This document shows positions 5,501 through 45,369 of a DNA stretch of 64,000 nucleotides, piece after piece. The stretch is from Vermamoeba vermiformis. Taxonomy: Eukaryota. The translations under genes were made by a program, and so were the position numbers. The first letter of the stretch is position 1. The number at the start of each line of letters is the position of its first letter. Under the pieces are notes generated by a model. The model saw only the letters and a list, made by a program, of their open reading frames with translations, was not told the DNA's origin and searched no databases. The stretch spans positions 124,001-188,000 of the forward strand of contig JBEWZL010000184.1 of assembly GCA_045837725.1 (NCBI GenBank), read 5' to 3'.

Positions 5501-7115
5501 GAAACTCGCGCGTCAAAAGCGCTACGATGCCCTGATCACACTCGAACGATACCAACAACTCGCGCAACTGCTTGTTAGTGGCGAGTCTGAATTGCGCGGT
5601 GAGCTGCTCGAGAAATTGTACAAGGGATTGCGCGGTGTGAATGAACTGCCACTGCGCTACTTGGCCTACTTCGCCCTTTACGGCAACGACCGTGAACACG
5701 TCGTCAAGGCCAAGAAGTACTTTGCAGCCTGTGTGCAGACTCGCCGTCAGTTCTTGAAGCAGAATCAAGATCAATTCGTGCAAGAAGAGCCAGAAGATGA
5801 AGACGACGAGGCACACGGCAAGAAGTCCATTCCCAACGCCGTCAAAGTGATCATGCGCGTGATGCCCGAGTACAGCTTGCCCTGGACTGTGCACTTGTTG
5901 GCGCACTTGCCGTACTTTGAAGAGGACAAGCCGAGCTACACAGTCACCGTCAAGTACTTGAACATGTGGATGGAGACTGTGCTCCGCGGCTCCTCGACCA
6001 CTGCTGGCAATCGATCTCTGGTGCGTCAAGCCCTGGTAGATATTCGTCAGACCAATGACGCACAGGACGCAGACAATCACAATGTGCACACAGTCGCAGA
6101 ATTGGCATATCGCGTCTTGAACGAGCACTACGCCATCACAGCAGTGCAAGACAAACAGGCCAATATGGAGACGTTCTACTTGCCCCAAACACTCTTCACC
6201 ATGCCTGAAAAACTTCTGTCGCTGTCACAGACCTTTTTGCCGGATGATTATCACCTGCCATCGGGCAAGAACAAGATCCAACAATTGCTCGCCGAGACTG
6301 ACAAGAAGAAGGGCAAAGAGAGCGATGAAGAGCAGAGCGATGAACAACTCGAAGACAAGCGCAAGAAGAAAAAGAACGACGACGACTCAGTGTCAGAAGT
6401 GCGTCCCAAGGGCAAGAAGAGAAAAGCCGCAGAAGAGCCCGAAGAGTCCGAGAGTCGTCCGAAGAACAAGAAGAGCAAACGCGCCGAGGAACCAGCCAAG
6501 GGCAAGAAGAAAAACAAGGCCGAAGAGGAGGAAGAGAACGGTGAAGAGGCTGAAGAAGAGACTAACACGCGTGCTAAAGGCAAGAAGAACAAGAAAGCCG
6601 AGCCCGTAGAGGAAGAAGAGCAAGAGGAGCCTGAAACCAAGGGCAAGAAGGGTCAAAAGAACAAGAGGGCCGAGCCCGTGGAGGAAGAGGAGCCAGAGGA
6701 GCCTCAACCACGCGGCAAGGGCAAGAAGAACAAACAATCCGAGCCTGTAGAGGATGAGAAGCAAGAGGAGCCTGAGACCAAGAGCAAGAAGGGTCAAAAG
6801 AATAAGAAAGCTGAGCCTGTAGAGGAAGAGGAGCCCGAGACTAAGCAATCTAAGGGCAAAAAAGGCAAGAAATCAGCGGCTGTCGAAGAAGAAGCTCCTC
6901 GCAAGGGCAAAAAGAATAAGACTGAGCCCGAAGAGGAGCAAGAAGAGCCCAAGCCAGCGACCAAGAAGCAGAGCAAGAGCGCTGCCAAGAAGAGCAAGGC
7001 GGATGAGAGCGACACCTCTCCGAACAAGAAGCGCAAACGTGAAGCCAGCGAAGAAGAAGAGCCCGAGGAGCCTGAGATCACGCACAAACGCAAACAGCGC
7101 AAGACGAGCAAGTAA
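2559..7115 (+). CDS. PDS5: Sister chromatid cohesion protein PDS5 (HEAT repeats, long charged C-terminal tail)
   Basis: Motifs LLAACCLADIIQIYAPNAPY, LLYVLPQLDNQLKVEDLETR, FLGRFKDINPDIRI, GTPVQAKYAVRAL and MPEYSLPWTVHLLAH. About 5 short introns. Confidence 0.93.
6400..6960 (+). repeat. Degenerate ~60-nt coding tandem repeat (KGKKNKKAEPVEEEE(Q/P)EEPET) in PDS5 tail
   Basis: Recurrent aagggcaagaag...gagcccgtagaggaagaggag units, seen directly. Confidence 0.8.
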
Positions 7116-7206: not shown

Positions 7207-8178
7207 TTAGTTCGCAGTGTTGGGGCCAGCACTACTCGGGCTGTTCTTCAGTTTCTCGGCCAGTTTCTTGCGCATGGCGAGTTCGTGCTCCATCAAGAAC
7301 AAGTGCGCGTCTTCTTTCATCAGCTGCGACACTTCGGGCTTGAAGTCTGCCTCGTCAGGTTCTTCTTCGACTTGGAAGAAGCCAGCGAGATCTGGCTCGT
7401 TGATGACCTGTTCAAACATCTCCGTGTCCGACACCTTGCGGCCAGAGCCAAAGCCCTGCGCGTTCATGTTCAGCAAGATGTCAAAGCCACCGAGAATCGC
7501 CGCACCGAGCAGACCGTTCTTCAACATGGCACGAGGTCCTCTGCGCATCGTGGACACCGCACCCGTGAGGAAACCAGCGGTGGCGTGATTGATGGTGTCG
7601 TCCACGCCTCGAATGCCGCCCAAAAAGCAGTCGAACACGGGGTACAAGAAGCCCCACAGACCAAAACTCATCGCTGTCTTCAGGCCTTTGCGCTTGCACG
7701 CGTACCAACTGGAGAGATATAAATAGCGCCACTTGTAGGAGCGCGGATATCTGATAGAATACTGTTAATCAGTGCTATTATAATGCTGCGAATTGAACTG
7801 AAATTTGAAATATTGGTGCAGATCTGGTGGTGAATTCAACGATAAATATTAATTAAATTCTAAAAAATACAAGGTATTATATACTTAATTGCATTTATAT
7901 ACAATTTCACCGCACCATAATATTCAATTATTTAAAATAATTACAACTAAAGCAGCATGTCACCGCGCATCCGTTACTTACTTCCCCCCAAAGCTGCGTT
8001 CTTCTTTAAGTAATCGCCGCGATGTCCTCCGAAAAGCTTTGCCACCGTGCCACGCAAAGCCAGCAATCATGCCCATAGTGAATGCGCTGCCAAAGTCGCT
8101 GTAGATCTTGTCAGGACACTCTTCACCGCCCTCCAAGACCTCTTCCAATGCCTCAAAGCCAGTCTCGTCTTCACCCAT
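7207..8178 (-). CDS. Tim17/Tim22/Tim23-family mitochondrial inner-membrane translocase (Tim17-like)
   Basis: ECPDKIYSDFGSAFTMG, SFGLWGFLYPVFDC, IRGVDDTINHATAGFLTG (PRAT-like motif). One intron ~7752-7983. Confidence 0.8.
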
Positions 8179-8363
8179 TGTTGATCGCTGCTAGTGTGAG
8201 TCTCAACACGCGTGAGTTGTGTTGTTGCGATCGCGCTGATCTGTTCAACTGCCTGCACGGTCAGTACACGACTAAGAAATGAGGAACAACGCGTGAGAAC
8301 CGAAGTGATACAATATCGTCTTTGTTATATATACAAGTGAGCTATAATACAGGCAGTGGTGGG

Positions 8364-9297
8364 CTATTTCTTCTTGTCTTTCTTCATCTTGGCCGCGCAG
8401 TCAGGACAGTACCACTTGCCCTTCACTGGACCACTCAGCCCCACGCACTCGAAGTGGAACCATTCAATCGCGCACTCGGGGTTGTCGCAGCCAATCATCT
8501 CGCCGAACGACACTCGGCCGCACGTGCAGTAAGTAGGCTCGTTCGGATCGATCGGCATCTCAACTTCAGCGCCGAGAGGCACGCCATTGACGCCTAGTGG
8601 TCCGCGAACATCACCCGCTGACTTTTGATCCCTATTGCGAGGCATATTAGTGCTGCGTAACAAGACAGATCTGCCGCGTACTTCTTGCGCGGTACTTTGC
8701 CGAGTCCAGGGCCCTGTGCTGCGAGCTTCTTGCCGCCAGTAGACTTGAGTGTTTGCGACTGCACTTGTTGCTGCTGCTTTCTCTCGTCTTCGAGCTCAGC
8801 TTCAAACTTCTTCAAATCCTGATCCAAGCGACGGATGTGTTTGTCAACCTAGAAGCAGTCAGATAGAGTATCGCAGTGCAGTCTATTCACTACTACGCAC
8901 CAAATCATATGTCTGCACTGCAAGCGACACTTTTTCATCGCAGTGCGACACGCAGTTCTCGAGCTCTTCGCGCATCTGCTGAATTTGCTCGTCGGTAAAT
9001 AATTCTTTTAAATTCTTCTTATTGCCCGATTGATAGGCGACCATCATTTCTTCTACGCGTGTTGACGTTTCTATATTTTATTTGTAAGAATTTGAGATCT
9101 AAAATTTGAAGTTAATCGAATTGATTCACCGTGCCTTTAGTTCTGTCGTCCAATTCGCGCATCAAACTGAAGTTGCGACGCAATTCAGCTGGCAGCGTGG
9201 AGATGCCTGTGAGAGTGCGCTATTGTTAGTCGACGAGCTCGCATGCACAAAAGCGAGCTTGCTTACTCTCGAGGTAGTTCTCTAAATACGTGCTCAT
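8364..9297 (-). CDS. ING-family PHD finger protein
   Basis: Begins [29 protein letters not shown]. Contains [21 protein letters not shown] and PHD finger [36 protein letters not shown]. Confidence 0.93.
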
Positions 9298-9596
9298 AGT
9301 AGAGTTGATACTACGCAGTGGTCTATGTTATTCGGCTCAGCTAATTATTACAGGCTGTTTTTCATCGTTCCCGCGTTTTATTTCAAAAACGGCTAACTGA
9401 TATGCGAACTCAGTGCAACTAATTGACGACACTAGGACTGATAGGTACGAAGGGTATTTCCGACCACCTCACGTTCTACTCACACAACAAGGCTTTAAGT
9501 GGAATAATGTGTGCAGGGGATGTGATCTGGATTCACTCACTCACGCCCAGCACGCATCACATGCATTTATTGTATATGGTAGTAGTAGTATGGTGC

Positions 9597-11546
9597 CTAC
9601 AGTCCCTGACGCAGCTGCTCCAAGTAGAGTTCGCTGCACAGTGCGGGGGTCTTGAGCACGGCGCGGTACTCGCACTTGGCGGGCTCGTCGACCAGCACCA
9701 ATTCATTCGCGCGGCCGCACTGCATCTCCACGCGCAGCGAGCGATTGGGTCCGTTCCAGCATCGATCACCGCTCGAGAAGTTCATTGCACTGTACTGGGC
9801 CTCAAAGCCGTCCCACTTGCTGCGATTGGTCAGTTGTGGTGACACGTGTCAAACAGCGACTTACCCCAAGTTGGTGTGGCTGTGACCATTCGCATTGCGC
9901 TGCGACGCCTTCTCCCAGGGCTTCACTTCGTAGACGTATCTGTGACACGTGTCAGTGAGTGCACTCTGCGCGGAGGTGAGCGAATGACACTTACTCCTTG
10001 TTGCGGAACTCGAGTGTGCTCTTGTAGAGTCCAAAGAACTCGCCGTGGTGTCCGAGATCGAGTTCACTGAACTTGTTCAGCTCGTCCAGCTCGCTCTTCA
10101 CGCGATCACGCTCTTTCTTCGCGGCATTCAGCGCTTCTTCGGCCTTCTCTTTCTCTGCACGGAGGGGTCAGTACGCAGATCACGTGGGTGCGGAATAATA
10201 ACACATCAACCTGATTTCAATGGAGAAAATGACTGCAGAATGGAATTGAAAGCGGATCTGACCCCACTCAGCAACTGCTCTGCTGCCAACTGTGAATAGG
10301 CTGTGCGTGCATAGGCCAGGGGTCAGTCACGTGACTTACCGAATTTGGAAGGCTGCACAGACTCGTGCTGATTGACGCGCTCCTCGACGAGTTGCTTGAC
10401 CTTGTTCTCGCGCTCACGGGCCTCATTCACTTGCGCACGAGCCACACGTGCAATGCGCTCCTCGTCAGTCTCGTCGTCTGGCACTGTCTCGCTGCCCTCC
10501 TCCGCACTCACTGTCGCACCCACTTCACTCTCCACCGCACTCTGCACCTCACTCTCGACCAGGGCACGCTGGCTCTGGTACTCGCTGTCTGCGGCAGAGT
10601 GCTTGGCGGCGAGTTCAATCACGTGCTGTTCGAGGCTCGCGTGCTCGGCGGTGAGGGCACTCAACTTGCGCTGGTTCTCGGTCTGTTGCGCGCGATACGA
10701 CTCGATCCACTCGCTGCGCACGCGCATGCCTTCTTCGGCCTCGGCGAGCACTCCGCGCTGACACGTGATCAGTGCATGCACCACACGACTCGCTGACACT
10801 TACCAACTGCGCGGCACGTGCTTCAGCTTCAGCGGCACAGGTGTTGGGACAGTTGATTGCCTTATTAGGTAATTGCACCAATTCATCGCCACTCTTGCTG
10901 AGCCACTCGTCGCTGCCATCACAACAGTCTGCGAGAGGTGTCAGCTGGCACTACAGCTCATATATATGTGATATAGAGCGCTATACTATAGCTCATTACA
11001 CGTACCGCAAATGCCGTCGTTCACCCACGAGCTCGGCACAGATTTGCCGCGCGAGCCTGGATTGGCGCAGTAGAAGTGGCCGTTGTAACACGCAGCGGTG
11101 CCTGTACGATGAACGGTTACTAAATATGGCAATGCAGTCACGTGACTTACCAGGCTCATCACTGCCGTCCTCGCAGTCGCAGTAGTCGTCATTCACCCAG
11201 CTGATGGGGATGGTCTTGGCTGATTTGAACCAGCCACCGCTCTGACGACAAGAGAATGTCTCGCCAGTATAGTGCTTGTGATCTGCGTGGTCTGTGTTAG
11301 GCACATCCAGTTCAAGTGGTGACGTCATTAAATATTTGAGGAATAATTATCTTAAATTATAATTATCTTAAATTTGACTCGCAATAGCAATGTAAGGTAG
11401 AAACTGACTAGGGTGATATAAATATATATACAATATAGTAAAATAGTAGTTAAGCGCTGCATACCTTCAGGAGGCACACCAAAAGTTGGATGGAGAGCTA
11501 GGGCCACAGAGAGCAATGCACAGCTGAGAATGAACAGCTTGAACAT
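9597..11546 (-). CDS. PRKCSH: Glucosidase II beta subunit (PRKCSH/80K-H)
   Basis: Signal peptide, then [38 protein letters not shown], a coiled coil, and an MRH domain ([28 protein letters not shown]). Confidence 0.92.
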
Positions 11547-11758
11547 GTCTAATGATGATGTCTATTATATATATATAATGTTGGATACTAGTGTCACTAA
11601 TACACTAGAGTTACTAAGCAGTGTTGTTCAGTGTCTTTGGCACTTAATCACTGCCCCTCGAAACACGCTGTTATTGTCAGTCACACGCGTGCACCAACAA
11701 CACAGCTAGCACTGATAGACACACAGTAGTGTCATATACATATATCGGACAGAGCACA

Positions 11759-14136
11759 ATGAGTCGAGGCACCAAGAGGACGCGTGACGAAGCAGATGTA
11801 GCAGAGGACGATGACTTTGGCCCTCCTCGTCCCAGCGAGGGCGACGAGACTAGCGACACCAATAACAACAACACTACTACTGATGCGAGTGAAGCACAGC
11901 CCAAGAAGAAGCAGAAGATTGTCAAGTTTGAGAAGTTGTATTTGGATCTGCTGCCGAGTGCCGAGCTGTACGAGCGCAGCTATATGCACCGCGATGTAGT
12001 GTCGCACATTGTGGTCACTAAGACGGACTTTATTATCACAGCTAGTGTGGATGGACACGTCAAGTTCTGGAAGAAACAGCCGCTCGGGATCGAGTTCGTC
12101 AAACACTTCTTATCGCACACAGGTATGCATATTAATAGCACCCATATTATTATAATGCTCTCTGTATTATTGGCTGCGCAGTCGAGTGCCGTACCGCAAC
12201 GAAACTCTCGATCCACTGCCCTCCACAAAAATAATTCAGAAAATTGCAGCAATAACTCGCGCACTATCCAGCAATAATATGTGTCCTACAATAGGACTGA
12301 AATAATAATTACAATGCAGGGGAGTGGATCTGAGAAAATTCTTTGCTCATTCAATTCACTGAATTATTCGTTCACTGAAACTAATCTCGCCTTAATCTCG
12401 CAGCACCAGTCACAGGCCTCGCAGCGAGTACAGATGGTCTATTTTTAGCCTCGGCTGCCAAGGACAAGACACTCAAGGTGTATGACGTCATCAACTTCGG
12501 TACGCACTGCTGTCACGTGACAGGTGTCAGGGACTGATCTTTATTACCAAATTTAGACATGATCAACATGCTGCGCGTGCCCTTCACGCCGAGCACGTGC
12601 GAGTGGATTCACAAGCGCGGGGCCATGCGACCGCTGCTGGCAGTGTAAGTGCCTGTTTGACACGTGTCATCGACTGACTCGCGTGACAGGGGCGACAAAG
12701 ACAGCGGAACAATTCGCGTGTACGACGGCAGTGGCGTGGACAAAGACGAGCAGGGCTTCAATGTTCCGCAGCACGTGATCAGTCTGCACAAAGCGAGTGT
12801 CGTGCAGATGAAATTCAATGAAATCTACGACACGTGTCTCTCGATCGATGCGCGCGGCATGGTCGAGTACTGGTCACCTGCGGAACAATTCGGACTGCCA
12901 CGTGCCATCACCTTCCAATTTAAGACCGAGACCGATTTGTATCACTTTGCCAAGGTGAGTCAGTGACAGGTGTCAAACTGCGTGTTGCAACTAATCACGT
13001 GACAATATTTGCAGAACAAGTCAGTGCCACTCTCCCTCGCCTTCAGCCCTGATGGACGTCAATTTGCAGTCATTACGATCGATCGACAGGTGATCGTGTT
13101 CAATTTCCTTTCTGGGAAGTTGTCGCGTGTCTACGACGAGTCGCTGGCAGTGGTGACAGCGAGTCAGAAAGAGGGCGCGGAAAATCTAAAAATAGATCCG
13201 ATTGACTTTGGTCGTCGCATGGCGGTGGAACATCAGCTCGACAAGGGCTGGACTGATGGCACTGTGCCACCGCCCAGTCTCCTGTTTGACACTTCGAGCA
13301 ATTTCCTAATTTATCCCACCATGCTGGGCATCAAAGTGGTCAATGTGCACACCAATCAGCTGCGTCACGTGCTCGGCAAGTCCGAGTCGGAGCGCTACAC
13401 GGTGCTGGCACTCTACCAGGGCAAGACCACGGGCTCTGCGGCACTCGGCACACTCGCGGTCAATGCCGAGCACGATCCCACCATCTTTGCAGCTGCGTTC
13501 AAGAAACACCGCTTCTACATGTTCACGCGCCGCGACCCCGACACGGGTGTGGACGGCGATCAGTCACGTGACGTGTTCAATGAACGGCCGACCAAGGACG
13601 AACAGGCCTCCATCCCCGCGCACAAACAGCGCTCGAACAAATTGGCACGCCGCGCAGTGCTGCACACGACCCTGGGCGACATTCACCTCGCGCTGTTTGC
13701 AGATGACACGCCCAAGACCGTCGAGAACTTCACAGTGCATTCCAAAAATGGTTATTACAACGGCGTCATCTTCCACCGCGTGATCCGTGGATTCATGATC
13801 CAGACGGGAGATCCGCTGGGTGATGGCACTGGTGGCACGAGTATCTGGGGCGGAGATTTCGAAGACGAATTCGTGCCGCACTTGAAGCACGATGTGCCGG
13901 GCACGGTGTCGATGGCCAATGCGTCCAAGCCCGACACGAATGGCAGTCAGTTCTTCATCACCACCGTGCCCACGCCGCACCTCGATCAGCGCCACACCGT
14001 GTTTGGACGCGTGACACGTGGCATGGATGTCGTGACAGCCATTGAGCGCACCAAGACTGATCGACGCACGGAAAAACCATTTACGGACATCAAGATACTA
14101 AATATAGAAGTGCTGTTCGATGACGCACCGAAATAA
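11759..14136 (+). CDS. PPWD1: WD40-repeat cyclophilin (spliceosomal PPIase)
   Basis: [32 protein letters not shown], and a cyclophilin domain ([38 protein letters not shown]). Confidence 0.95.
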
Positions 14137-14212
14137 ACACGTTGCCTAATTAGTACCGAATGACACGTCACCACTATTTATTTACAACAGCTGCTCCTAT
14201 ACTACACTGCAC

Positions 14213-17200
14213 TCATTGTGCGAGGCCAGGCAAGTGTGCCACCATCGCTGCGCGCAGATCTGCATCGTCCTCGCACGCACCGCGCAGCACTGCAGCACGT
14301 GCTGTCACCACGTGACTCGGGGGTTGTTCCGCGAGCTGTTTGTGCGACAGTAGTGGCTCGTGATCGGTCCAAAAATAGAACACGTCTTGCACGACACGTG
14401 ACAGTGGTCGCTGGGATTTAATCCAGTGACTCCACAACTGCTGTCGCGACCACTCGTCGCCCAGGGCTGCGGAGAACACTCCGAGAGTCACGTGGCGGAC
14501 CAGGGCCCAATACAGATCGGAATTTCGCAATTCTTCAGTGACTTGCGGTGCAGCTAGCCACGTCATGGCACTTTTGACACGTGTCACAGTGAGGTCTCCA
14601 ACGAGTGCGTACAGCGGTCGAGTCACGTGACTGATCAGGGTGGTCCAGGCTGTGGCCAGTGTTGACCATATTTGGTTCGCACACTGCGCAGGAAGTGCTG
14701 TCAACAACCACGTGGCCAGGGCCTGTCCTCCAGCACCCTCTGACAGCCAAATCTCCGCAATATCTCCGAGCTTGGCTGCGGTGGTCGGTCCTGCGCTGTC
14801 GAGAGCCAAATCTCCCCTTGCGGAGATCGTTCTGATCACGTGCGCGGCCATGCTGTCAATGACTGGATCGGCGCAGATCTGTGGTCCGAGCAAGAACAGT
14901 CGACCGAGCTCTAAAAATAGCACGTCTGCGGGGTATTGTGCAAAGTCTATATTAAGTGCAAAGGTTAATGCTGTCTCAATAAATAACTGCAAAGACTTAC
15001 AGTGCGCGTTGTGTATCGACAAGAAGCACGTGACGCGAATGTATTGCTGCACAAAGTGTTGCACAAATTCTTGCAATAATTGCTCGCGTTCCGTGCTGTC
15101 CTCGCTCTCGTTCAGTGAACGGTGTGCGTAGTGCAGGGGCCAGAACAGCCACGTGCCGTTGAGTGGCAGCACGCTCTTGTCAAGCGCGATCACGTGCGTC
15201 AACTGGCCACGTGTCACAAAGTCACGTGTCAAAGTGAATGCGCGACTCTCCGTGTCAGCTGTCACCTGCGTGTCAACGGGCAGCTCGTACGGATTGAGCA
15301 CCATCCCAAAATAGAAGTCAATGAACTCCACGAGACTGTCGCGGTGCTGATCGAGTTGTGACATGATGACGTGTTGTTCACTGAATGCTGATTTCACTGA
15401 AAGGGACTCTGTGCGGCGGGACAAATCGTCAATCACGTGATCACGTGTCATCAGGTACACTTGACGGTTGAGAATCACGTGCTCGAACATTTCCAAAACA
15501 AGCAATTCATCGCCAGGCAGCAGCTGATCTACTGCGCGCATTGCCAAAGAAGGAAGTTGTTTCATGAACGAGAGATCGGTCGAGATCTGTTGGCGATGCA
15601 CCATATTTAGCAACATCACCAGGGACTGCGCTAGTCGTCTGCTCGGCACGTGCGTGAATAACTTGGGCAAAGTCTTCTTGTCCAGGGCCTTGCCAAATTT
15701 GGTAGTGAACGGCAATCGATCGTTGGTGTCGAGCAGTGTCACGAGCAGCTGTTGAAAGCTTTGCACGAGTGTTGCGTCTAAAAATAGCAACACGTTCTTG
15801 GCCTGCACTTCATCGAGCAGCTGATTGTAGTCTTCGATCAGGGCCATTACCATATATAGTAATCGCGTCACAGCGAGCACCGAGTTCTGCGCGGCGATGG
15901 AGGTCGAGGTTTGACAGCTCCATGTCAAGCAGGGCAATGTTTGCAGCCACACTGAGCCACGCAACTCGTCGGAATTACTCAGCTGCGTCACGTGTGCCAG
16001 TGACTCGCGGAATAACTTTGACTGGGTGAGGGGCGCGACATATTTGGCAATCACGTGACTGAGCTGCTGCACAGCTACTTGCACGTGTGTCACGTGATCT
16101 TCAGGCAGTTGTTTGAGGTGCTTAAAATAGCTGCTCAAAAAGTGCAAAATTGCCGCAACGGCTGTCACGTGCTCGCGAATACTTGCAAAGTCTGACTTGT
16201 TGCTGTCCACAGCTGTCAACAAACTGTCAAGTGCCAGCAGACTGGGCTGAAACAGATTCGACACGTGACTCCAGTGCAGGACGGGGCCCTGGGAGATTTC
16301 GCTGCCCTGATCGGTCGATGTGGTGGCACTGTTCACCACGGCTATTTCGAGCAGTCCTTCCAGCGCTAAAAATAGTGCAGTAGTGACGCGTGCAGGATCG
16401 CGAGCCAGAATTTCCTTTTTTGTCTGCAGATGTGTGATGTGCTCGATGATCACGTGATAGATGTCTAAAAATAGCTCGGAGGTCAGTCCGTACCGCACGC
16501 ACGTGTGCCACAGTCGCAAAGTCTGCACGGTGAGGGCCGGCAGCGACGCGTGCTGCAACAGATCACGTGGAGGGCGTACAAAATAGGCAATCACCAGCGG
16601 AAGAATTCCTTGCGCAGATTTGTTGAGATCTTCGTCGTCTGCGCGCGGGTCAGTCTCGCCTTCCTGATTTAGTAATAGCGGGGAAGCAGGGAGCAGACCC
16701 AAGAATCGTTGACAGGTGTCAAGTGACGACGCGCAACACAGCTGCAATAACTGCAAAGCTTTCGGGTGTGGTCTGTACGGCGTGTCATCGCGTGTCACAC
16801 TCTGATTGACGTGCACAAAGTCACGTGTGATGACGTGCAGCAGACGAGGGCACTAAAAATAGCACTGGTCAGTGATCGATCGGCGGAATAATTGACACTT
16901 ACGCTGAGCACGTGATTGACACCTGTCTCCGAGTGACGGGCCGCAGCGAGACAGAGATCTAAAATTAGCTCCACAATCACGTGGCTCTGCGGTCGCATCA
17001 CTTCGAGCACGTATCTGACACGTGTCAACAGCCCTGTTTGCAGCACTGCTGTCATCACGTCGCGCTGACTCAGTTCCAAATCGGTCAATTGTTCCGCTTC
17101 ACCGTCCTCTGTCACGCCGACCACGTGCTCGGAGATCAGGGGCCAGATACACGCTCCGTGCCACGTGGTTGCAATCTCGTCGTAGATCTCCGCGTCACGT

Positions 17201-18496
17201 GCGTTCACTAACAGCGCGTGCAGGGCGCGAAGGGCGTCACTGACCAGGGCTTCAGGGCCTTCATCCAGAGCTCGGCGCACCAAAAGAGGCAATTTGTGCT
17301 CAATGGCCCAGGTCAGTACTTCCGCGGCTTGTGATTGGTCCGCGCTCTGTTTCCAATTTTGGAGAATGTTTGCCACCACGTGCACTGCCAGCGCGCGCTG
17401 CTTTTTGACAGTTGATGACATGAGGTGCAACAATTCTTGCAAAGTATACCCTGGTAGCTCGGGCTGATCTCCGTGGTGATACAGACTCGGATCGTATTGT
17501 TCCGCACTGGCACTTGTCACGCGATGGCCTGCAAAATCATAGCGCCAGTGTGCAGGACGCGAAGTGACATCTGTCATTGAGGTGTCAGCAGTGACAGGTG
17601 TCATCCACTGTGTTTTTTCGCGCTCTAATTGTTCCGCTGTCAATGGCTCGTCCTGGTCGATGTTTGACACGACAGGTGTCAATGTGTCACGCGTGTCATA
17701 AACGAATCCTTTGTTCGCGAGATCGATCACCTCATGCGGATTGACACGTGTCATTGGCGTGTTCGGGCTGGCCTCTTGTTTTTCCAAATTAGGCAACTTG
17801 TTCATGCGTGCTGCACCGCGTTGTTTGAGTCGCGCGACTAATTTTGGATCGATCGAGCTGAATATCTCCTGCTGCATCTCACTGATCTCCGCGGCACTCA
17901 GATTGCCTAATTTGGCAGTGTTCTCAGCATCGACCTCTGCTAACAAATCTGCATTGTTGTTCGGTGCGGTACTCGCAGTGACACCTGTCATTCGTGCGGG
18001 TTGCGGTTTGACACGTTTCAAGTTGAGTTCAGAGCGGTGTTTGACAGGCGGGAATGCCGTGCTGCGCGGAGGTGGCGGAGTGACAGGTGTCAAGACTTGA
18101 TCTCGCTCCACAATCTGCGTCATCACGTGACTGATGTGTCGATCACCAACTGACGCACGGTTAGTGACATTGGTTCAGTGAACGGTGCTGGCACTCACCT
18201 CGCATGCGATGTGCCACGTCATCGTCGTCATCGCGGTCACGTGACTGTTTGAACAGCGATTTCTTTTTTTGGACATTGACTGCTTGACGCGACAGATCTG
18301 GCGTGGTCTGCGGCAACTGACCAATGCGCACGACGTCCTTTTCGACTGCGCTGATTGGCTCGGAGTCTTTGCTAGAATTCGCGGGGCTATTTTTGACCGC
18401 GCTCTTGTTCACGCGCACCACTTGCGCTGCGGGTGCTTTGCCGCTGCGGAGAAACTCTTCCTGCAATGCCGCGACATTAGTAGTGTTGTGCTGCAT
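14213..18496 (-). CDS. RPAP1: RNA polymerase II-associated protein 1 (RPAP1/Rba50/IYO)
   Basis: LQEEFL..GKAPAAQVVR, the RPAP1_N motif EVDAENTAKLGNLSAAEISEMQQEI, and the RPAP1_C motif YHHGDQPELPGYTLQELLHLMSSTV..QR. Introns near 18145-18199 and 16853-16902. Confidence 0.88.
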
Positions 18497-18966
18497 ATTA
18501 ATGCGATTGGCTCGAATAGATATATGCATATAAACATATATATTGGTGCTTTCACAATTTAGCGTGCAGATCGCGATCGGACCACAAACTAATTATCTTA
18601 GCAAGACTCGTGCAATAGTTATGGCAATAATTTCAAAATAAATCGGTGATATTAATATAGCGTCATATTGTCGCTAATTCAGTCGCTTACTTGTTGCTGG
18701 ATCAAGTCCTCCGTGTCTTCGGCTTCAAATAATGACTTGCGTTCCATGGCACTCGTTCACTATAGATTATTGCAACTAACACTACAATCAAGTGTTCTAT
18801 TGTGGTGTTCTCGTTCAGATCTGTTGCAAACTATTCTAGGCCCCCACGTGCTTTTTTTTTGCAAGCACGAAAATTTCACGCGAAGTTGCAAAATTATTTG
18901 AAGGCGTGTTGCGAGCACAGTCATAATTGAGTGGCTGTATTTGCTTGCTATGTAATATTGCCCAAG

Positions 18967-21826
18967 ATGATGGAAGGTTGGAATCAATTGACCGATCGAT
19001 ATTATCGCAAAAAAGATGTATATGAATTGGGCTGGCAAGGCGTTGACTTCAATAAATTAAAGCTCGTTGGTGCACCATATGGCGGACCTGTTGGTACAGT
19101 ATTTAGCTTATTATAACACAATATTGTTGTTGGAGAATATTCCATTTAATAATCAAAAATCGAATTAAATTAGTTACAGCTCGTAGTAATACCTACATTA
19201 ACAATATTATTATGCAGCTCTTATGCGAGATAATTCAAAAATGTTAATGGTCAAGGAGACCAATCTGAGCCCTGTTATTGACATCTACACCTCTTCTGGC
19301 AACAAATTAGGCTCTATTTTGGTAAATATATATGGCACATGCTATCTATACATATTATTCACTCGTCTGACACAATCTACTCGACTAAAGGTTGATCAGA
19401 AGCGGATGCCGATTGTCAAAATGGGTTGGAGCGATGACGAGCGTTTGATTATCATCACCGAGTACGTACATGCACCACTCTATATAACCAAGTACTCATA
19501 GCACCCCAGGGACGGCATGTTGTACCAGTACAATGTGTTTGGCCAGCTGCTCAACAAGTTCATCATTGACGGCGTAAGTCATGCCCATAAAGCTCATATT
19601 AGTGACTCATACATGCACTGCAGGAGTGTCAAAAGGGTGTATATGACTGCTACATATTCCCCACAGGTGCCGTGGTCATGTCGCGCAGCTACAAGCTGTT
19701 CCTCATCCACAACTGGGATCAGATCAAAGTCCTCAAGCTGCGCGATGCCAATTTGACCGAAGCACCGCGCTGCTGGACTGTCATTGAACCGCAAGTCTCG
19801 GTGAGCAGTCAAGGCCAGGTTACTACAGTCTGGTCGAGTGCTGACGGCGAGCCCAGTGTGGATGTGCTGCTCGCCCTCGACTCGGGCACGGTGCTCGTTG
19901 TGTCGCGCGACGAGGCCACAGACATGGCCATCACGAATGGACCGTTCTTGAAGATGACAGTCAGTCCCACGGGCAAGATCTTGGCGTGTTTCAATGCGCG
20001 CGGTGACGTGTGGGTGGTGACGACGGACTTCAATTCAAATCTCTCCACATTTGCCACCAAGAGTCCGCAGGCCCCTACACAGCTCGTGTGGTGCGGTCCC
20101 GATGCAGTGGTGTGTTACTGGAGTGGTGGCGAGGACAACATCTTGTTTCTGATTGGTCCGCGCACCGACAAAGACAACTGGCTCAAGTTCAGCTACGACG
20201 AGCCCATTCAACTGGTCTCCGAGCCCGATGGACTCAGAATCTTCTCGCCCACGCAGTGCGAGTTCTTGCAGCGCGTGCCCAATGTGGTGGAGAGTGTGTT
20301 GAAGATGGGCAGCACGAGTCCTGGCGCCATGTTGTTGGCCGCGTGGGAGTGGTTTCAGAAGAAGAGCGCCAAGGCTGATGACACGCTGCGTCACGACATT
20401 AAACAGGACTTGGGCCAGGCTGTCGATCACTGCATTGAAGCTGCTGCACACGAATTCGATCCCGCCATGCAGCGCAAGCTCTTGAAAGCAGCAGCATATG
20501 GCAAGGCCTTCATTGACGAGTACAACAGCGACTTTTTTGTCGAGATCTGCCGCACTCTGCGCGTGTTGAATGGCGTGCGCTACTTTGAGATTGGCATGCC
20601 ACTGACTTACACGCAGTACAAGTTGATGGGCACTAGTCTGCTCATTGATCGATTATTGGCACGGCATCATCACCTCTTGGCGTACAAGATCTGCGACTAC
20701 CTGCATCTGCCTTCGGACCGAGTTCTCATCCACTGGGCTATTGCTAAGGTGCAATCATCTACCAATGACGAACAAACTGCGAAGGAGATTGTTAAGAAGC
20801 TCAAATCTCATACTGGAATTTCATTCGCCGAGATCGCATCTGCTGCGCATCGAAAGAACAAAACAGCGCTCGCCACTATGCTACTGGACTACGAGCCTCG
20901 ACCAGCAGATCAAGTGCCACTGCTCCTGTCTATGCGCCAGTACGAAGCAGCGCTGCTCAAGTCCTTACAGAGCGGTGACACAGATCTGGTGCACCTCGTT
21001 TTAGTTCAGCTGCGCGGTCAATTAGCTGCGAGTGAATTGATGCACCTCATTGGCAAATATGATACTGCCTTGGCATTGTATATTAAGAGCTGCAAGGACC
21101 ACGACAAAGAGCGCGACAAGCTGCGCGAACTCTACACATTGCAACAGCGACCAGATCTGCTTGCTGGACTGCTCGTACGCGAGGCTTATCAGCATCCAGT
21201 ACGTATACTAATATTCTATTATTGTTGTTAACATGTTCTGCCATTAGGACCTTGAAGCACGTCGCGAGAGATTGCATCAAGCGATGAACCAGTACAAGAA
21301 GGTAGATCCGACAGCCGCCAAGGCCACAGAAGAGCAAATCGGTCTATTACTGTTGCAGAAGGAGCTAGAAGTATCATTGGGTGGTAAATTCGTTGGCTCG
21401 TCACTCAGCAACACGCTGTACCGTCTGATCTTGATGGGCGAGCACAAGCGCGTACTCAAAATCAAGAACGAGTTCAAAGTGCCCGACAAGCGCTATTGGT
21501 GGCTGCGTATTAAAGCACTAGCAGAGGCGCACGAGTGGACGGAGCTCGAACAGTTCTCCAAAGAAAAGAAGTCGCCGATCGGTTACGCGCCGTTTGCTGA
21601 AGTCTGCTTGCAGGCCAACAAGCTCGATGAAGCTACTAAATATGTGCGCAAGATCACCGAACCTGATCAACGTGCACGATATTGGGCTCGATTGGGCCAG
21701 TGGAGCGAGGCTGTCGCTGCTGCTCGTGAAGCACGCGATCCAAATCTGTTGATTTATCTTCGCAACAGATGTCCTGACCCAGCACTCGTGGCGAATATTG
21801 ACCAGCTACTACAGCAACAGAAATAA
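18967..21826 (+). CDS. VPS16: Vacuolar protein sorting 16 (HOPS/CORVET core)
   Basis: YYRKKDVYELGW, GAPYGGP, CIEAAAHEF, QRKLLKAAAYGK, LRVLNGVR..IGMPLT, SGDTDLV, FKVPDKRYWW and KKSPIGYAPF. Confidence 0.95.
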
Positions 21827-21970
21827 CGCTGTCTTGTAATAAATATGATGTTATCACTGACTTACTCGTCAATATTCGGCTTGACAGAGCACCACAACTG
21901 GAGTTTGAATGAATTGCGGCGCATTAAATATTGAATGACAACAACTACCACCGTGTAATACATATCAAAT

Positions 21971-22547
21971 ATGGAGCCTAAAAAGCGCGGCAGACCTCCT
22001 AAGTACGTGCGTGCAAATCTTTAATGGTTATCTCTTATTTATTACTGGCGATAATTATGAATGCAATAATAATTAATAATACATTGATGTTTTAGTTATT
22101 AATCATTATTGTGGCAGAAAGAATTATTAATTCTGCCCTTAAATTAAATGAGATCTCTTTTCTCTTAGGCACAAGAACAAAGAGAGCCCCACAAGCATAA
22201 TTAGCGGCAATAACAACAATACTAATGTCAATAATAAGAATCCAAAGACAATCATTCCACCCAGATCAGCCAAAACAGCGCCACCAGGCTACTACAAATG
22301 CAAGCACAAGCACTGCCACGCGTACTGCGAGAACCAAGACATACTTCGCCGTCACGAAGAGGACTTCAAATATCATCGCCGACACTACCAAGAGCTCGGC
22401 GACAATTGCAGGATCTGTTTGCAACTCGCGACGCAGTTACTCTGGCAGCGCATTATTTCATACCGCGAATTGACTGCGCTGTCACGTGACTTGTTGAAGC
22501 TCGTGGAGACCACGCGCAACACCCCTCCGACATTGAGCGAGCAATAA
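21971..22547 (+). CDS. Small (~136 aa) AT-hook plus C2H2-like zinc-finger protein; absent from the ORF track
   Basis: Exon 21971-22002 (MEPKKRGRPP), intron gtacgt...ttag 22003-22168, and exon 22169-22547 open to TAA. Contains YKCKHKHC-x12-H-x6-H and CRIC. Confidence 0.7.
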
Positions 22548-22577
22548 AGCATGTACATAGTTGTAGTTTACTCTATC

Positions 22578-25500
22578 TTACACGGCATTGACGGTGAGTT
22601 CGGAGCCCAACACGGCCTCGCGATCGCGCTGCATGTGCACATTGATCGTGCCTGCAATCGATATACCGCGACTGAGCTCGGTGACGTGCGTGATCACGAA
22701 CACTTTGCGCAGTCTGCTGGCGAGTGAGACGAGCACTTGTTGCACTTGCAGCTGACCAGTGCGATCGAGGGCATCGAACACTTCGTCGAGCATCAGGTAC
22801 TGCGGCTGATAGCGCGATCTGTTGCGCACGAGTTCGAACAGCGAGAACAGCACTGCGAGGTCCGTTCTCTTGCGCTCACCACCGCTGCGCTTGACGTACA
22901 CTTCTTCGAGCTCGAGTTCGGGGGTCAGTGTCACTGTCACTTTGCCACTGTCCGACAGCTGATCGGCATAGCTGTCCAGCACGAGATTCAGCTCTTGCAC
23001 CAGATCTGCAAAGATGAAGGAGCGCACAGTCTCAAAGCCCATGGTGCTCTTCGTGTTCTTGTCGAACGCCACTTCCCAGAACCGCGCCATGCTGTACTGC
23101 TCGGACACGTGACTGTGCTCTGCTGTCACGGCTGTCAACTGTTCGTTCAGTTGTGTGACACGTGCCTCGTGCTGCGCGATGGTCGCTGTTAGTTGATCAA
23201 TCTCCGCGGCGAGATAGTGCAATCTCCTGTCGAGATCACTGGTCTCCACCACGAGTTGGTTCTGATAGCGCAGCAGTTCGTGTTCCTTGTCTGCCAGTGC
23301 GCGCTCGACTCCTTTGATCTGTTCACTCAGTTCGAGTCGTCGTTTCATCGCTTGCACTTCCGTGCGCTCCAGCACTTCAATATCTCGCTCGATATCTCCG
23401 CGCAATTGTTGCAATATTTTGAACAGATCTGCAGAGCTACGCGTCGTGTCATGCACACCAGTGACACGTGTCAAAAACGCGTGATTTTCTTCGAGCAGTT
23501 TGGCGTGATGTGATTCGTCAATTGGTCGGCCACAGCGCGGACAATTCTTCTCGTCCAATGAGTACTCGTGCATGTGATTCAGACGCACCACTAACTCGTC
23601 GCGGAGTTGTTTCCACTCGTTCACTGAACGGCCGTTGATCACAGACGGAGTGTCACTGGCCTGTGCATTAAGATCATTTTGCCGCAATTCGATGGCACTC
23701 TTTTGCTGCGCGAGCTGTTCAATCTGCCGCTCGAGATCTTTGCGCGCATCTTCACGTCCCTCCACACGATTGCTCCTCTCTTGTTCCACTGCTTGGCGAT
23801 CAGCAGTCTTTGCACCAATTTTTTCATTAGTGTTCTTAATAGCCATATTTAGTGCCTTCAACTCTTGTTGCAGTGCAGTCTGTGTTTGCATCAATTCATT
23901 GAGCCGTGCCTCGAGTTCATTGCGCTTGTTTTTTGCGGTCTCAAAGTACGCATTGAACTTGTCGAGGCCCAGTGTCTCTTCAATAATGCTGCGCCGCTGA
24001 TCTTTGTTGCCCGACACAAAGTTGCTGACAATGTTCTGCCCGAGCACGACTGACTTGGTGAAGGTCTCGTAGTCAATGCCCAACAGCTCGTTGAGCACTT
24101 TCTGCGTCTGACTCAGCTCACCCTTCTCATTCTCCGCGAGGTACTCGGGCTCTGCATCGTCTGCGTGTCGTTGATAGGTGCGCAACACATCTGCTTTGCC
24201 GCGCTTGCGAGTGCGTTCGATGATGAAGCCGTTGTCGTACTCGAGCACCACACTGCACTCCCTGGCCTCGTCGTTGATGCAGTAGTCCTTCGCCATGCCA
24301 CTGCGCAAGAAGCCCCCGAACTGACACCACACTGCGTACATTGGTCAATAGTGCTGCTGTACATACAGTGCTGTAGTGAGTCCTACCTAGTGCCTCAAAG
24401 ATCTGACTCTTGCCGCTGCCATTCGCGCCTTCAATGATCCAAATGCCGTCGTTCATGTTCTTGAAGTCCAGGTGCACTGTGCCCTGCACGCCCATGAAGT
24501 CAGTGATGGTCAGACTGCTCAGTGTGCCGTCGAATGCCTTGCCCTCGTGCTTGTCAATGCTCTGCACGCGCGAGTCAGCCACGAGACTCTTGCCTAATTC
24601 GGTCAATGCGGCAATCTTGTCCTTGTTGTCCAACAGTCCTTCAAATCTCAGGCCCGACTTCTTCTTGCGACTTTGAGCCTCGACAAATGTCGTGTGCACG
24701 TGATTGGTGAATTCTTCGAGCAAATCATCAATTTTCTTGCTCTGCTGACTGGTGATGGCAGAATCAGTGCCCGGATTTTTGATGGCATCGACAATCTGCA
24801 CATCTTTTTTCACACCCAACACACCGAGCTCGAGCAATTCATCGACGAGTGTTTGATGTTGCTGTGGTGTGACAAACAGGTCCTCGTATTGTACCATGAG
24901 AAAGGTGTCTTTGTACTGCGCAATGTTCTGTTTGACGCGCTCAATCTCCGAGTACTTGACTTTGAAGTACTGATCGCCGTGTGGATTTTTGATGAATTCA
25001 ATCTGATCTGTCTCTGTGTCGTAGATCACTGTCACGGTGGTTAGTAGCGCACTTCACGACTCAGTTCTCAACGTACCAATGCCGCGGTCTTGTTCCGCAT
25101 CACCAAAGTTGAACTGCACTGGTGCTCCGACATAGACTACTTTATCTAGTAAGTGGTGGGCGTGAAAGTGTCCCTAAATTGACACGTGTCACTTGCAGTG
25201 TTCAAAACAAATGTCAGACAATTGACGTACCGAGAACGTTCTCTTGAGCGGATTGAACGCATCAGGACCAATGGGGCCCTTGTATCGCGAGCTAGAACTG
25301 TTTTGAATAGCTCCATTGATGGCTAAGTGTCCAAAGCCTATTGTCTTGGCCAACAACTTCTTTTTGCGCTTTTTAATGAGCTCTTCAATCTTGCCGACTA
25401 TTTCTGTTTGATCTTCGTGCTAACGGCACCATAGTTATTAATGATAGACTAGTGATGGACAACATACATAGGGCATCATGAGGCAGGAGACACCTTTGAC

Positions 25501-26315
25501 AGATGTCAATGTGAGGTCGCGATGTAATTGCACGAATTGATGGCGCAGCAGACTGTTCATGCTGAGTGCATCGAGCGACGAGATTTTAGAGGAGTGACGC
25601 CTGTCATATATGAACACATTAGTCTTGCACTCTCGTTGATGTCTGCACGCACAAATTCATGTCGTGATTGCCGAGTATGACGTGAATAGGCACGACTTTG
25701 TTCTCATCGATTGCCTGGCCCTTGCGCGCCTCTTTCAACACCTCTTCGTTCAACACCGCATTCATCTTGTCGAAGAACGACAGCGCTGAAGATAAGGACC
25801 GCACACTCACTACTTCGCGCGTGTTGAGCACATCTGCTTCGCAAATAATGAGTACTGCAGCTTGCGTATTCATATTGCTAACCTCCTAAGCACACTACCG
25901 CATCGACTTTGCGCTGCTTGAACTGCTCGATAATCCTGACCAAGGCGTGAGCACGAAGCTATTTAACCCTTTAGACCACACTTACCAGTCACCTGTCGTT
26001 GTAATGCGCTCGAGGCCTTTGTCTTGGAAATGTATATCACCAAACAGGCCTATTGTTGCATAAGAGCGGTACTGACGGGAAACTTTGGCTCGCTTAGCGT
26101 GTTCTTTTGCAGATCTCTGAATTCACAAGTCAAATTAATTGACTGTTCGACACAGTAATTTTTAAAAAATCTAACAATCTTATGCAATGATATACATGCG
26201 TGCAATAAATGCCTGGAATTACAGGGTTATTTAAATAAAAGATTTCTAAGGATCGCGATCCAGTTTGACATTTCTCAAGTCTCCTTACCACAGCACGAAT
26301 AGTTTGCCGAAGCAT
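22578..26315 (-). CDS. Fused Mre11/SbcD-like metallophosphoesterase and Rad50/SbcC-like ABC ATPase (gp47-gp46 type)
   Basis: Spliced model. Nuclease motifs: GDIH, LGD, GNHD, GHL, SGHFH, YVGAPVQFNFGD. ATPase motifs: Walker A GANGSGKS, Q-loop VVLGQ, coiled coil with CPRC hook, signature SGGERKR, Walker B/D-loop LMLDEVFDALD, VITH. First exon less certain. Confidence 0.88.
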
Positions 26316-26509
26316 TGTTCTTAGTTAATATGTACTTTGTTGTAATGGTGGGGCATTGCCGCAAATAACAGCTGTTGTTGTGGCTCTGGTGAAAATTCTG
26401 TAAAACTTCACGAAAACGTTTCATGAAATTTGAAACCAAGAACTGTTCACGGTAACAAAACCATTTTGATATCACACATTGATACAAACACCACACTTCA
26501 GAAATAAAC

Positions 26510-45281: not shown

Positions 45282-45369
45282 CGCTGAGAAGGAGGAATTG
45301 AACCCCTACCACTCTCGTGGTCTACGGATTTGAAGTCCGCACCTGTCACCAGACAAAGCTCATCCCAGC
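45282..45369 (-). tRNA. tRNA-Sec (anticodon UCA)
   Basis: GCTGGGATG...CTTCTCAGC-G with a 9-bp acceptor stem, 6-bp D-stem around TGGT, TGCGGA-CTTCAAA-TCCGTA anticodon arm, long variable arm with GAGA loop, 4-bp T-stem with TTCAATT loop, and G73. A T8 terminator follows at 45271-45278. Confidence 0.93.

Follow-up and report, generated by a model that had tools for sequence, protein, structure and literature searches.

The 64,000-nucleotide (nt) stretch analyzed here, referred to as the window, comes from the amoeba Vermamoeba vermiformis (GenBank assembly GCA_045837725.1, contig JBEWZL010000184.1, positions 124,001 to 188,000 of the forward strand). It is gene-dense eukaryotic DNA with short GT-AG introns, and its genes include PDS5, a PHD-finger gene, PRKCSH, PPWD1, RPAP1, Vps16 and an SMC/Rad50-like gene, as well as an SNF2+HMG gene, a kinesin, phosphoglycerate kinase, HSP90, an NBR1-like gene, ALG9 and DHX37. 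Our subject is the palindromic hexamer CACGTG, the core of the E-box, which is crowded into the bodies of three neighboring housekeeping genes, PRKCSH, PPWD1 and RPAP1 (9843-18243, the island). An earlier note on this DNA had proposed that the hexamer represents a second, regional code overlying the exons. All motif counts refer to this one window, whose other genes serve as the comparison set. The three genes are arranged as follows.

9597..11328, minus strand: PRKCSH (glucosidase II beta subunit), approximate limits; Pfam PRKCSH-like at 10996-11346(-) and PRKCSH_1 at 9597-9848(-)
11759..14136, plus strand: PPWD1 (WD40 + cyclophilin), ATG at 11759; Pfam Pro_isomerase, and tblastn with a relative's full-length protein
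12499-12555 and 12645-12693, plus strand: PPWD1 introns, as joints in RNA reads
14213..18747, minus strand: RPAP1; Pfam RPAP1_N and RPAP1_C, and tblastn with the relative's protein P0141
18140-18197, 16853-16902 and 14947-15000, minus strand: RPAP1 introns of the gene model

Results

CACGTG is present 78 times in the window, against a mean of 18.78 (standard deviation 3.78) and a maximum of 29 in 100 dinucleotide-preserving shuffles, none of which reached 78. The island holds 56 of these exact copies, where the word's rate in the rest of the window predicts 3.4, and the 2-kb bins at 14-16 and 16-18 kb alone contain 19 and 17. Outside 9.8-25.5 kb, 16 sites are spread over 48.6 kb, which is the chance rate. 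The excess of CACGTG in the island is confirmed as real. Its sites fall into patches, listed here without a strand.

9843..11144: PRKCSH-body patch, 9 CACGTG, about 6 of them in short introns (site list; intron models from a search that keeps the open reading frame, ORF)
11145..12513: motif-free gap without any CACGTG, covering the PRKCSH 5' end, the divergent promoter, PPWD1 exon 1 and its 274-nt first intron
12514..14020: patch in the 3' two-thirds of PPWD1, 10 CACGTG, 7 exonic and one in each of 3 short introns (site list and gene model)
14296..18243: main patch, 37 CACGTG, all in RPAP1 exons, from 504 nt past the start codon to less than 90 nt before the stop (site list)
22483..25508: weaker second patch in the SMC/Rad50-like gene (minus strand), 6 CACGTG, 3 TGACANNTGTCA and 1 GCGGAACAA (site lists)

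Much of the earlier description holds. Its hand count of about 37 copies in RPAP1 is exactly 37 at 14296-18243, where the shuffle rate of 0.29 per kb predicts about 1.2, and the reported triplets are present at 15191/15208/15223 and 15434/15442/15476. Copies attached to splice donors do exist, as GTAAGT followed by CACGTGAC, but they lie at 10339 and 11150 on the minus strand; PRKCSH as a whole is on the minus strand, which corrects the previous view of its orientation. Sites beyond 26 kb are few, as claimed, although they number 10 and not about nine. The enrichment proposed for 9840-18250 is genuine but discontinuous, since 11145-12513 and the first 504 nt of RPAP1 are free of the motif. Under uniform placement, these two empty stretches have probabilities of 0.022 and 0.013, respectively; the corresponding value for PRKCSH, 0.36, is not significant.

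The notion of a regional code must be modified likewise. The sites are clustered, but the clusters track gene bodies: they skip promoters, 5' ends and all of Vps16, and return more weakly in the next gene. No CACGTG occurs in the divergent promoter region (11329-11758), in the 77 nt between the convergent PPWD1 and RPAP1, or in Vps16, which is located between RPAP1 and the SMC/Rad50-like gene. The six copies in the latter fall at 22.5-25.2 kb, and the sole promoter-near site is at 18845. Spacing within the island shows no periodicity: gaps are Poisson-like, (coefficient of variation 0.89), and pair distances show no preferred value.

What do the individual sites look like? The consensus R-N-CACGTG-N-Y fits 43 of the 56, often as RTCACGTGAY or TGACACGTGTCA. 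A purine stands two bases beyond the core in 96 of 112 half-sites and a T adjoins it in 46 of 112, the commonest flanks being GT, GA and AT. Read in the sense orientation, a 3' pyrimidine is found at 52 of 56 sites and a 5' purine at 44 of 56. The following extended forms occur in the island: TCACGTGA, with the E-box flanks T before and A after the core, accounts for 12 of the 56 sites and the CLEAR form GTCACGTGAC for 6, while GACACGTGTC is found 7 times and ATCACGTGAT twice.

Does the coding sequence itself account for the excess? In three RPAP1 coding blocks (3,813 nt), 36 CACGTG are observed. Synonymous-codon shuffles within blocks yield 16.6 in sum, with 0 of 1000 shuffles per block reaching the observed number, and shuffling codon order in the same blocks yields 3.4. 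Because both procedures fall short, both the amino-acid order and the codon choice of RPAP1 carry the hexamer; an excess over synonymous-codon-shuffled controls, the test set by the earlier note, therefore stands. All three reading frames are used, as had been claimed (20, 11 and 5 copies in these blocks). We also counted synonymous opportunities, that is, places where the protein sequence permits the hexamer without an amino-acid change. Such opportunities are taken in 43 of 58 cases (74%) in the island blocks, versus 3 of 22 across 11 blocks of coding sequence from 10 further genes of the window; the SMC/Rad50-like gene takes 4 of 11 and PPWD1 exon 1 takes 0 of 3, its His-Val (HV) dipeptide being encoded by CACGTC. 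The opportunities themselves are about 7-fold denser in the island genes (11 per kb versus 1.6 per kb in other genes). The G+C content of third codon positions (GC3) is 0.57-0.68 in the island genes and overlaps that of their neighbors (0.50-0.65). Shuffles and opportunity counts thus rule out composition and codon or amino-acid usage as the cause. The possibility that genes elsewhere show the same density is answered for this window, within which the other genes are clearly lower.

The hexamer also leaves its mark on the proteins. RPAP1 contains 23 HV dipeptides where 4.6 are expected, and 20 of them are encoded by CACGTG. One relative's RPAP1 has 20 HV (4.7 times expectation), whereas seven distant RPAP1 proteins have 2-7 (0.6-1.9 times). 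The earlier note had asked for an alignment of RPAP1 orthologs. With only 25-31% identity to other eukaryotes over about 200 residues, RPAP1 is too divergent beyond its clade to be compared site by site, although the HV excess can be recognized as lineage-specific; for this reason PPWD1 was chosen for the site-by-site test. The 90%-identity cluster of the PPWD1 protein includes a transcript assigned to Vermamoeba vermiformis by its source, and the named relatives that follow are other Amoebozoa with 57-60% identity. In the conserved part of the last exon of PPWD1, all three CACGTG sites depart from the consensus of 119 homologs. RI is changed to HV at one site (R in 88 and I in 85 of 119), GRD to SRD at another, ahead of an invariant R-D (G in 102 of 119), and KG to RG at the third (K in 107 of 119). 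Each departure requires 2-3 base changes. Site density is about 9 per kb in RPAP1 and about 2.7 per kb in the conserved part of PPWD1.

Are the sites retained in related amoebae? For a relative with 82% DNA identity, the RPAP1-Vps16 junction is available on a metagenome contig of 4,538 nt (L001), which was compared with the window over 15345-18349. There L001 has 19 CACGTG against 24 in the window, and 17 of the 24 stand in the same alignment column. The Vps16 and promoter part of L001 contains none. Where coding columns align without gaps, 128 of 136 motif bases agree, compared with 2129 of 2588 bases outside the motifs (p = 1e-4). For third codon positions the agreement is 38 of 40 (95%) within motifs versus 510 of 692 (74%) elsewhere (p = 0.001), and whole hexamers are kept at 16 of 23 motifs versus 38% of other hexamers (p = 0.004). 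Positions 1-6 bases beyond the core are mostly at background (80-85%), with one at 93%. Sites gained or lost between the two sequences differ by 1-2 bases only. At the protein level, four relatives with 82-99% identity keep most HV, TRD and TW positions. The array thus arose after this lineage had parted from the other sampled Amoebozoa, and it has been kept up ever since.

Introns contain the word as well. Nine of the 56 copies are intronic. Of the 13 candidate introns in the three genes, 8 have one or more, and 6 CACGTG are distributed over five candidate introns of PRKCSH. Since introns carry copies too, the excess is not a protein-level effect. A PRKCSH intron and a PPWD1 intron, located on opposite strands, begin with near-identical 25 nt (9840-9864 and 12645-12669, 92%), composed of GTAAGT, two variable bases and CTGTTTGACACGTGTCA. 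Logan contigs of run X1 are fragmented within the island; several contigs from other loci share stretches of about 20 nt around TTGACACGTGTCA, and some from elsewhere in the genome end on the GTAAGT-CTGTTTGACACGTGTCA intron start. These overlaps hint that the extended word may recur at other loci of the genome.

Three companion words are concentrated in the same region, two of them in the following arrays (no strand assigned).

9840..18092: thirteen TGACANNTGTCA dyads with centre CG, GG/CC or TC/GA; asymmetric-centre forms in both orientations relative to genes
12439..16968: nine CTAWWWWTAG, 8 in coding DNA, mostly as Leu-Phe-Leu, and one forming the 3' end of the RPAP1 intron at 16853

TGACANNTGTCA is found 18 times in the window against 0.16 expected. 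Its asymmetric-centre variants (CACCTG/CAGGTG within TGACA..TGTCA) are placed in both orientations relative to transcription, which fits recognition of double-stranded DNA and not of RNA. CTAWWWWTAG, which we take to be a MEF2/MADS-type dyad, occurs 10 times in the window (0.50 expected). It mostly encodes Leu-Phe-Leu with the rare-looking codons CTA and TTA, and is less conserved than CACGTG, only 2 of 5 covered sites being kept exactly in L001. The third word, GCGGAACAA, is present 7 times (0.65 expected) at 12704, 12880, 14324, 17089, 17497, 17629 and 25090, 6 of them in the island. All 7 copies are on the sense strand and encode Ala-Glu-Gln with identical codons. CAGCTG is about 4 times denser in the island, and CATGTG and CACATG are absent from it.

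Several other causes were rejected. Mutation that creates palindromes in general, such as quasipalindrome correction, does not apply, given that the other 63 palindromic hexamers stand at background (18.5 per kb in the island versus 18.0 per kb in the rest). The earlier note had offered methylation protection as one candidate; the window bears no sign of CpG decay, with an observed/expected ratio of 0.88-1.24 in every 2-kb bin, and at a ratio of about 1 throughout, protection of the sites is not needed. A mobile element, introner family or tandem repeat was likewise dismissed: copies resemble one another over at most 25-28 nt around the motif, Tandem Repeats Finder (TRF) detected no tandem array in 11.4-43 kb, and an Rfam scan returned no match in the island.

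RNA reads of runs X21-X23, which bear the same species label, match the window at 95-99% with a depth of about 1x. With only this level of identity over 7500-26500, they are attributed to a different strain or sibling species. They demonstrate transcription and splicing of the island genes, bear out two PPWD1 introns and contain an extra joint at 19320-19390. DNA contig depth is flat. The RPAP1 intron at 14947-15000 is 54 nt long and, in the window, keeps the frame without any stop codon, so that a naive ORF runs through it; it is skipped in the relative's full-length model P0141, and the ORF-derived models P0128-P0130 stop at about this point.

Elsewhere in the window, G+C content changes from about 0.50 over 1-26 kb to about 0.43 over 26-64 kb, housekeeping genes being dense in both parts. 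A selenocysteine tRNA gene is found at 45283-45369 on the minus strand (Rfam tRNA-Sec, 68.1 bits versus a gathering score of 47), so the amoeba probably uses selenoproteins. The C-terminal tail of PDS5 contains, at 6496-6871, 72- and 141-nt tandem repeats with many Lys/Glu codons, and a single ORF at 28327-29739 on the minus strand encodes both an HMG box and a helicase C-terminal (SNF2-type) domain.

Discussion

Our analysis shows that a DNA-level constraint specific to CACGTG overlies the exons of a few neighboring genes and outweighs moderate protein constraint. It is strong enough to set which codons are used and to displace amino acids that are otherwise conserved. The proposal of a second code over the exons thus finds support in the synonymous shuffles, the codon opportunities, the departures of PPWD1 from its homologs and the retention of sites in a relative.

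What could read such a code? We tentatively favor, at somewhat less than even odds, a maintained gene-body array of putative sites for a dimeric DNA-binding protein of the E-box type. According to this proposal, some 60 sites in the transcribed bodies of PRKCSH, PPWD1 and RPAP1 would be occupied by a bHLH or bHLH-ZIP-like dimer, which would read them as double-stranded DNA. The array might then act on the chromatin or chromosome behavior of the gene bodies, as a barrier, an anchor or a loading platform. Any of these roles would fit an array within gene bodies better than classical promoter control does.

A number of points weigh against this proposal. The binder is postulated from the pattern of sites. 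Gene bodies are an odd place for many strong sites, as factors bound there would stand in the way of RNA polymerase. Nor do the data agree with a simple regional domain, because Vps16 lacks the motif entirely while being flanked by enriched genes. Retention at the DNA level is drawn from one relative and 3 kb of RPAP1, where gains and losses are not polarized, and conservation above background is equally expected if repair or conversion is biased in favor of the motif. That all 56 sites lie in transcribed DNA would also be explained by a role at the RNA level. Finally, the PRKCSH intron models come from the ORF-keeping search; those of PPWD1 are backed by read joints and protein alignment.

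The bias just mentioned would amount to a molecular drive, in which repair, mismatch correction or gene conversion favors CACGTG alleles, and a selfish word accumulates wherever coding permits. We consider this rather unlikely, although much in the data resembles it. All frames are used and the encoded peptides are inflated several-fold, as in coding-region uptake sequences; density peaks where the protein is weakly conserved, in RPAP1 as opposed to the conserved part of PPWD1; and sites that differ between the window and L001 are only 1-2 bases apart. Drive does not by itself explain why the word is confined to a few genes, why Vps16 is empty, or why the 5' ends, including a weakly constrained intron of 274 nt, are empty as well, and at the well-conserved PPWD1 residues it would have had to achieve 2-3 base changes each. 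We know of no such mechanism in eukaryotes, and our literature search found none. If the word acts in RNA instead, CACGUG and its companions would be read in the pre-mRNA or mRNA by an RNA-binding protein, and palindromy would simply mean that the same word appears on either strand. All 56 sites are indeed transcribed, with none in two promoter regions or in the 77-nt convergent gap, GCGGAACAA is always in sense orientation, and, read in the sense direction, the 3' flank is a little more constrained than the 5' flank. For GCGGAACAA, however, a coding effect may underlie the sense bias, since the word always specifies Ala-Glu-Gln. The flanks of CACGTG are dyad-symmetric and the asymmetric-centre dyads occur in both orientations, neither of which suits an RNA element; folding of 1 kb of RPAP1 RNA (z = -0.76 versus +0.49 for a Vps16 control) was no better than that of shuffles. 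We therefore regard an RNA-level role as unlikely.

Could the island mark a position on the chromosome? A centromere-, origin-, pairing- or SMC-loading-type site, present once or a few times per chromosome and placed in essential genes, would account for a dense, bounded and conserved array of one dyad; the CDEI-like RTCACRTG occurs 61 times in the window, 46 of them in the island, and bacterial parS illustrates that segregation sites can reside inside coding DNA. The point-centromere form of the earlier note's centromere-like candidate did not survive a direct search for its layout (CDEI, an adjacent AT-rich segment of 70-95 nt and a CCGAA-type element), which gave 0 hits at ≥80% A+T; the richest 80-nt segment of the island reaches 77.5% and lies in the promoter. 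Moreover, the genes are transcribed and spliced, contig depth is flat, promoters and Vps16 interrupt the array, and its spacing is not periodic, all of which renders such a landmark very unlikely. Least credible of all, and barely worth entertaining, is a foreign or compositional origin, by which a CACGTG-rich donor or local codon and amino-acid usage would have supplied the word. The G+C content of the island, 0.53, is the highest in the window. Yet GC3 overlaps that of the neighbors, the shuffles fall short and these very genes lack the motif in their 5' parts. The boundaries are unchanged in the relative, whose sites are kept above background, the opposite of the decay that follows transfer, which argues against foreign origin.

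We think it quite unlikely, though worth stating, that the array is a lineage-specific landmark at which an E-box-type dimer would nucleate chromosome-level machinery that serves segregation, SMC loading, pairing or a chromatin barrier; an equally new alternative would be a eukaryotic counterpart of uptake sequences spread by biased conversion. Were the landmark version true, the array could not be lost without cell death, because the genes whose bodies contain it are essential.

Why does this matter? The general view is that factor-binding words in coding exons exert only a mild constraint on codons. In the island, a single hexamer occupies as many as three positions per 60 nt, sets 74% of the open codon choices, overrides residues common among 119 homologs, and does so in a pattern that has outlasted 18% DNA divergence. 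Should the array be read by a protein, the island would offer an unusually clear example from nature of one DNA carrying two competing codes, and this in Amoebozoa, a group for which next to nothing is known about chromatin and chromosome biology. Our literature search, which covered articles without their supplementary files, turned up no account of CACGTG in Vermamoeba and none of exonic E-box islands in Amoebozoa.

How does the island compare with known systems? The DNA uptake sequences of competent bacteria are a short word in coding DNA that is found genome-wide and driven by DNA uptake. They share with the island the use of all frames, the inflation of the encoded peptides and a preference for weakly conserved protein positions; they are genome-wide and prokaryotic, whereas the island is eukaryotic and its word confined to a few genes (PMC2817400). 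If drive were the true explanation, this would be the first uptake-sequence-like word in a eukaryote.

Segregation systems offer a second comparison. Budding-yeast CDEI and bacterial parS are dyads with the same core that serve segregation; parS has CACGTG at its centre and sites within genes. The island differs from both: it lacks parts resembling CDEII and CDEIII, its flanks do not match those of parS, and it extends over 8 kb with spliceosomal introns. In C. elegans, the rex/MEX and pairing-centre motifs show that local clusters of one short motif can recruit a chromosome-level machine. Those clusters are mostly non-coding, whereas the island is genic, and nothing ties its array to such a machine.

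Closest in sequence are the E-boxes of bHLH-ZIP factors, namely the Cbf1/USF class RTCACGTG and the CLEAR element GTCACGTGAC of TFEB, with which the island sites share the palindromic core and dyad symmetry, and some of them the preferred flanks. Known E-boxes are typically single or few and located in promoters; here about 56 occupy the exons and introns of three housekeeping genes, every one within a gene body, and the promoters are free. With homotypic clusters of factor sites and with the 'duons' of coding DNA, the island has in common many copies in a few kb and a constraint on codon choice. It departs from them in packing up to three sites into 60 nt, in overriding conserved residues, in filling introns and in its sharp gene-body limits. 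Judged by its motifs, the island would thus be a homotypic factor-site cluster in coding DNA, extreme in density, in its effect on protein and in its restriction to gene bodies.

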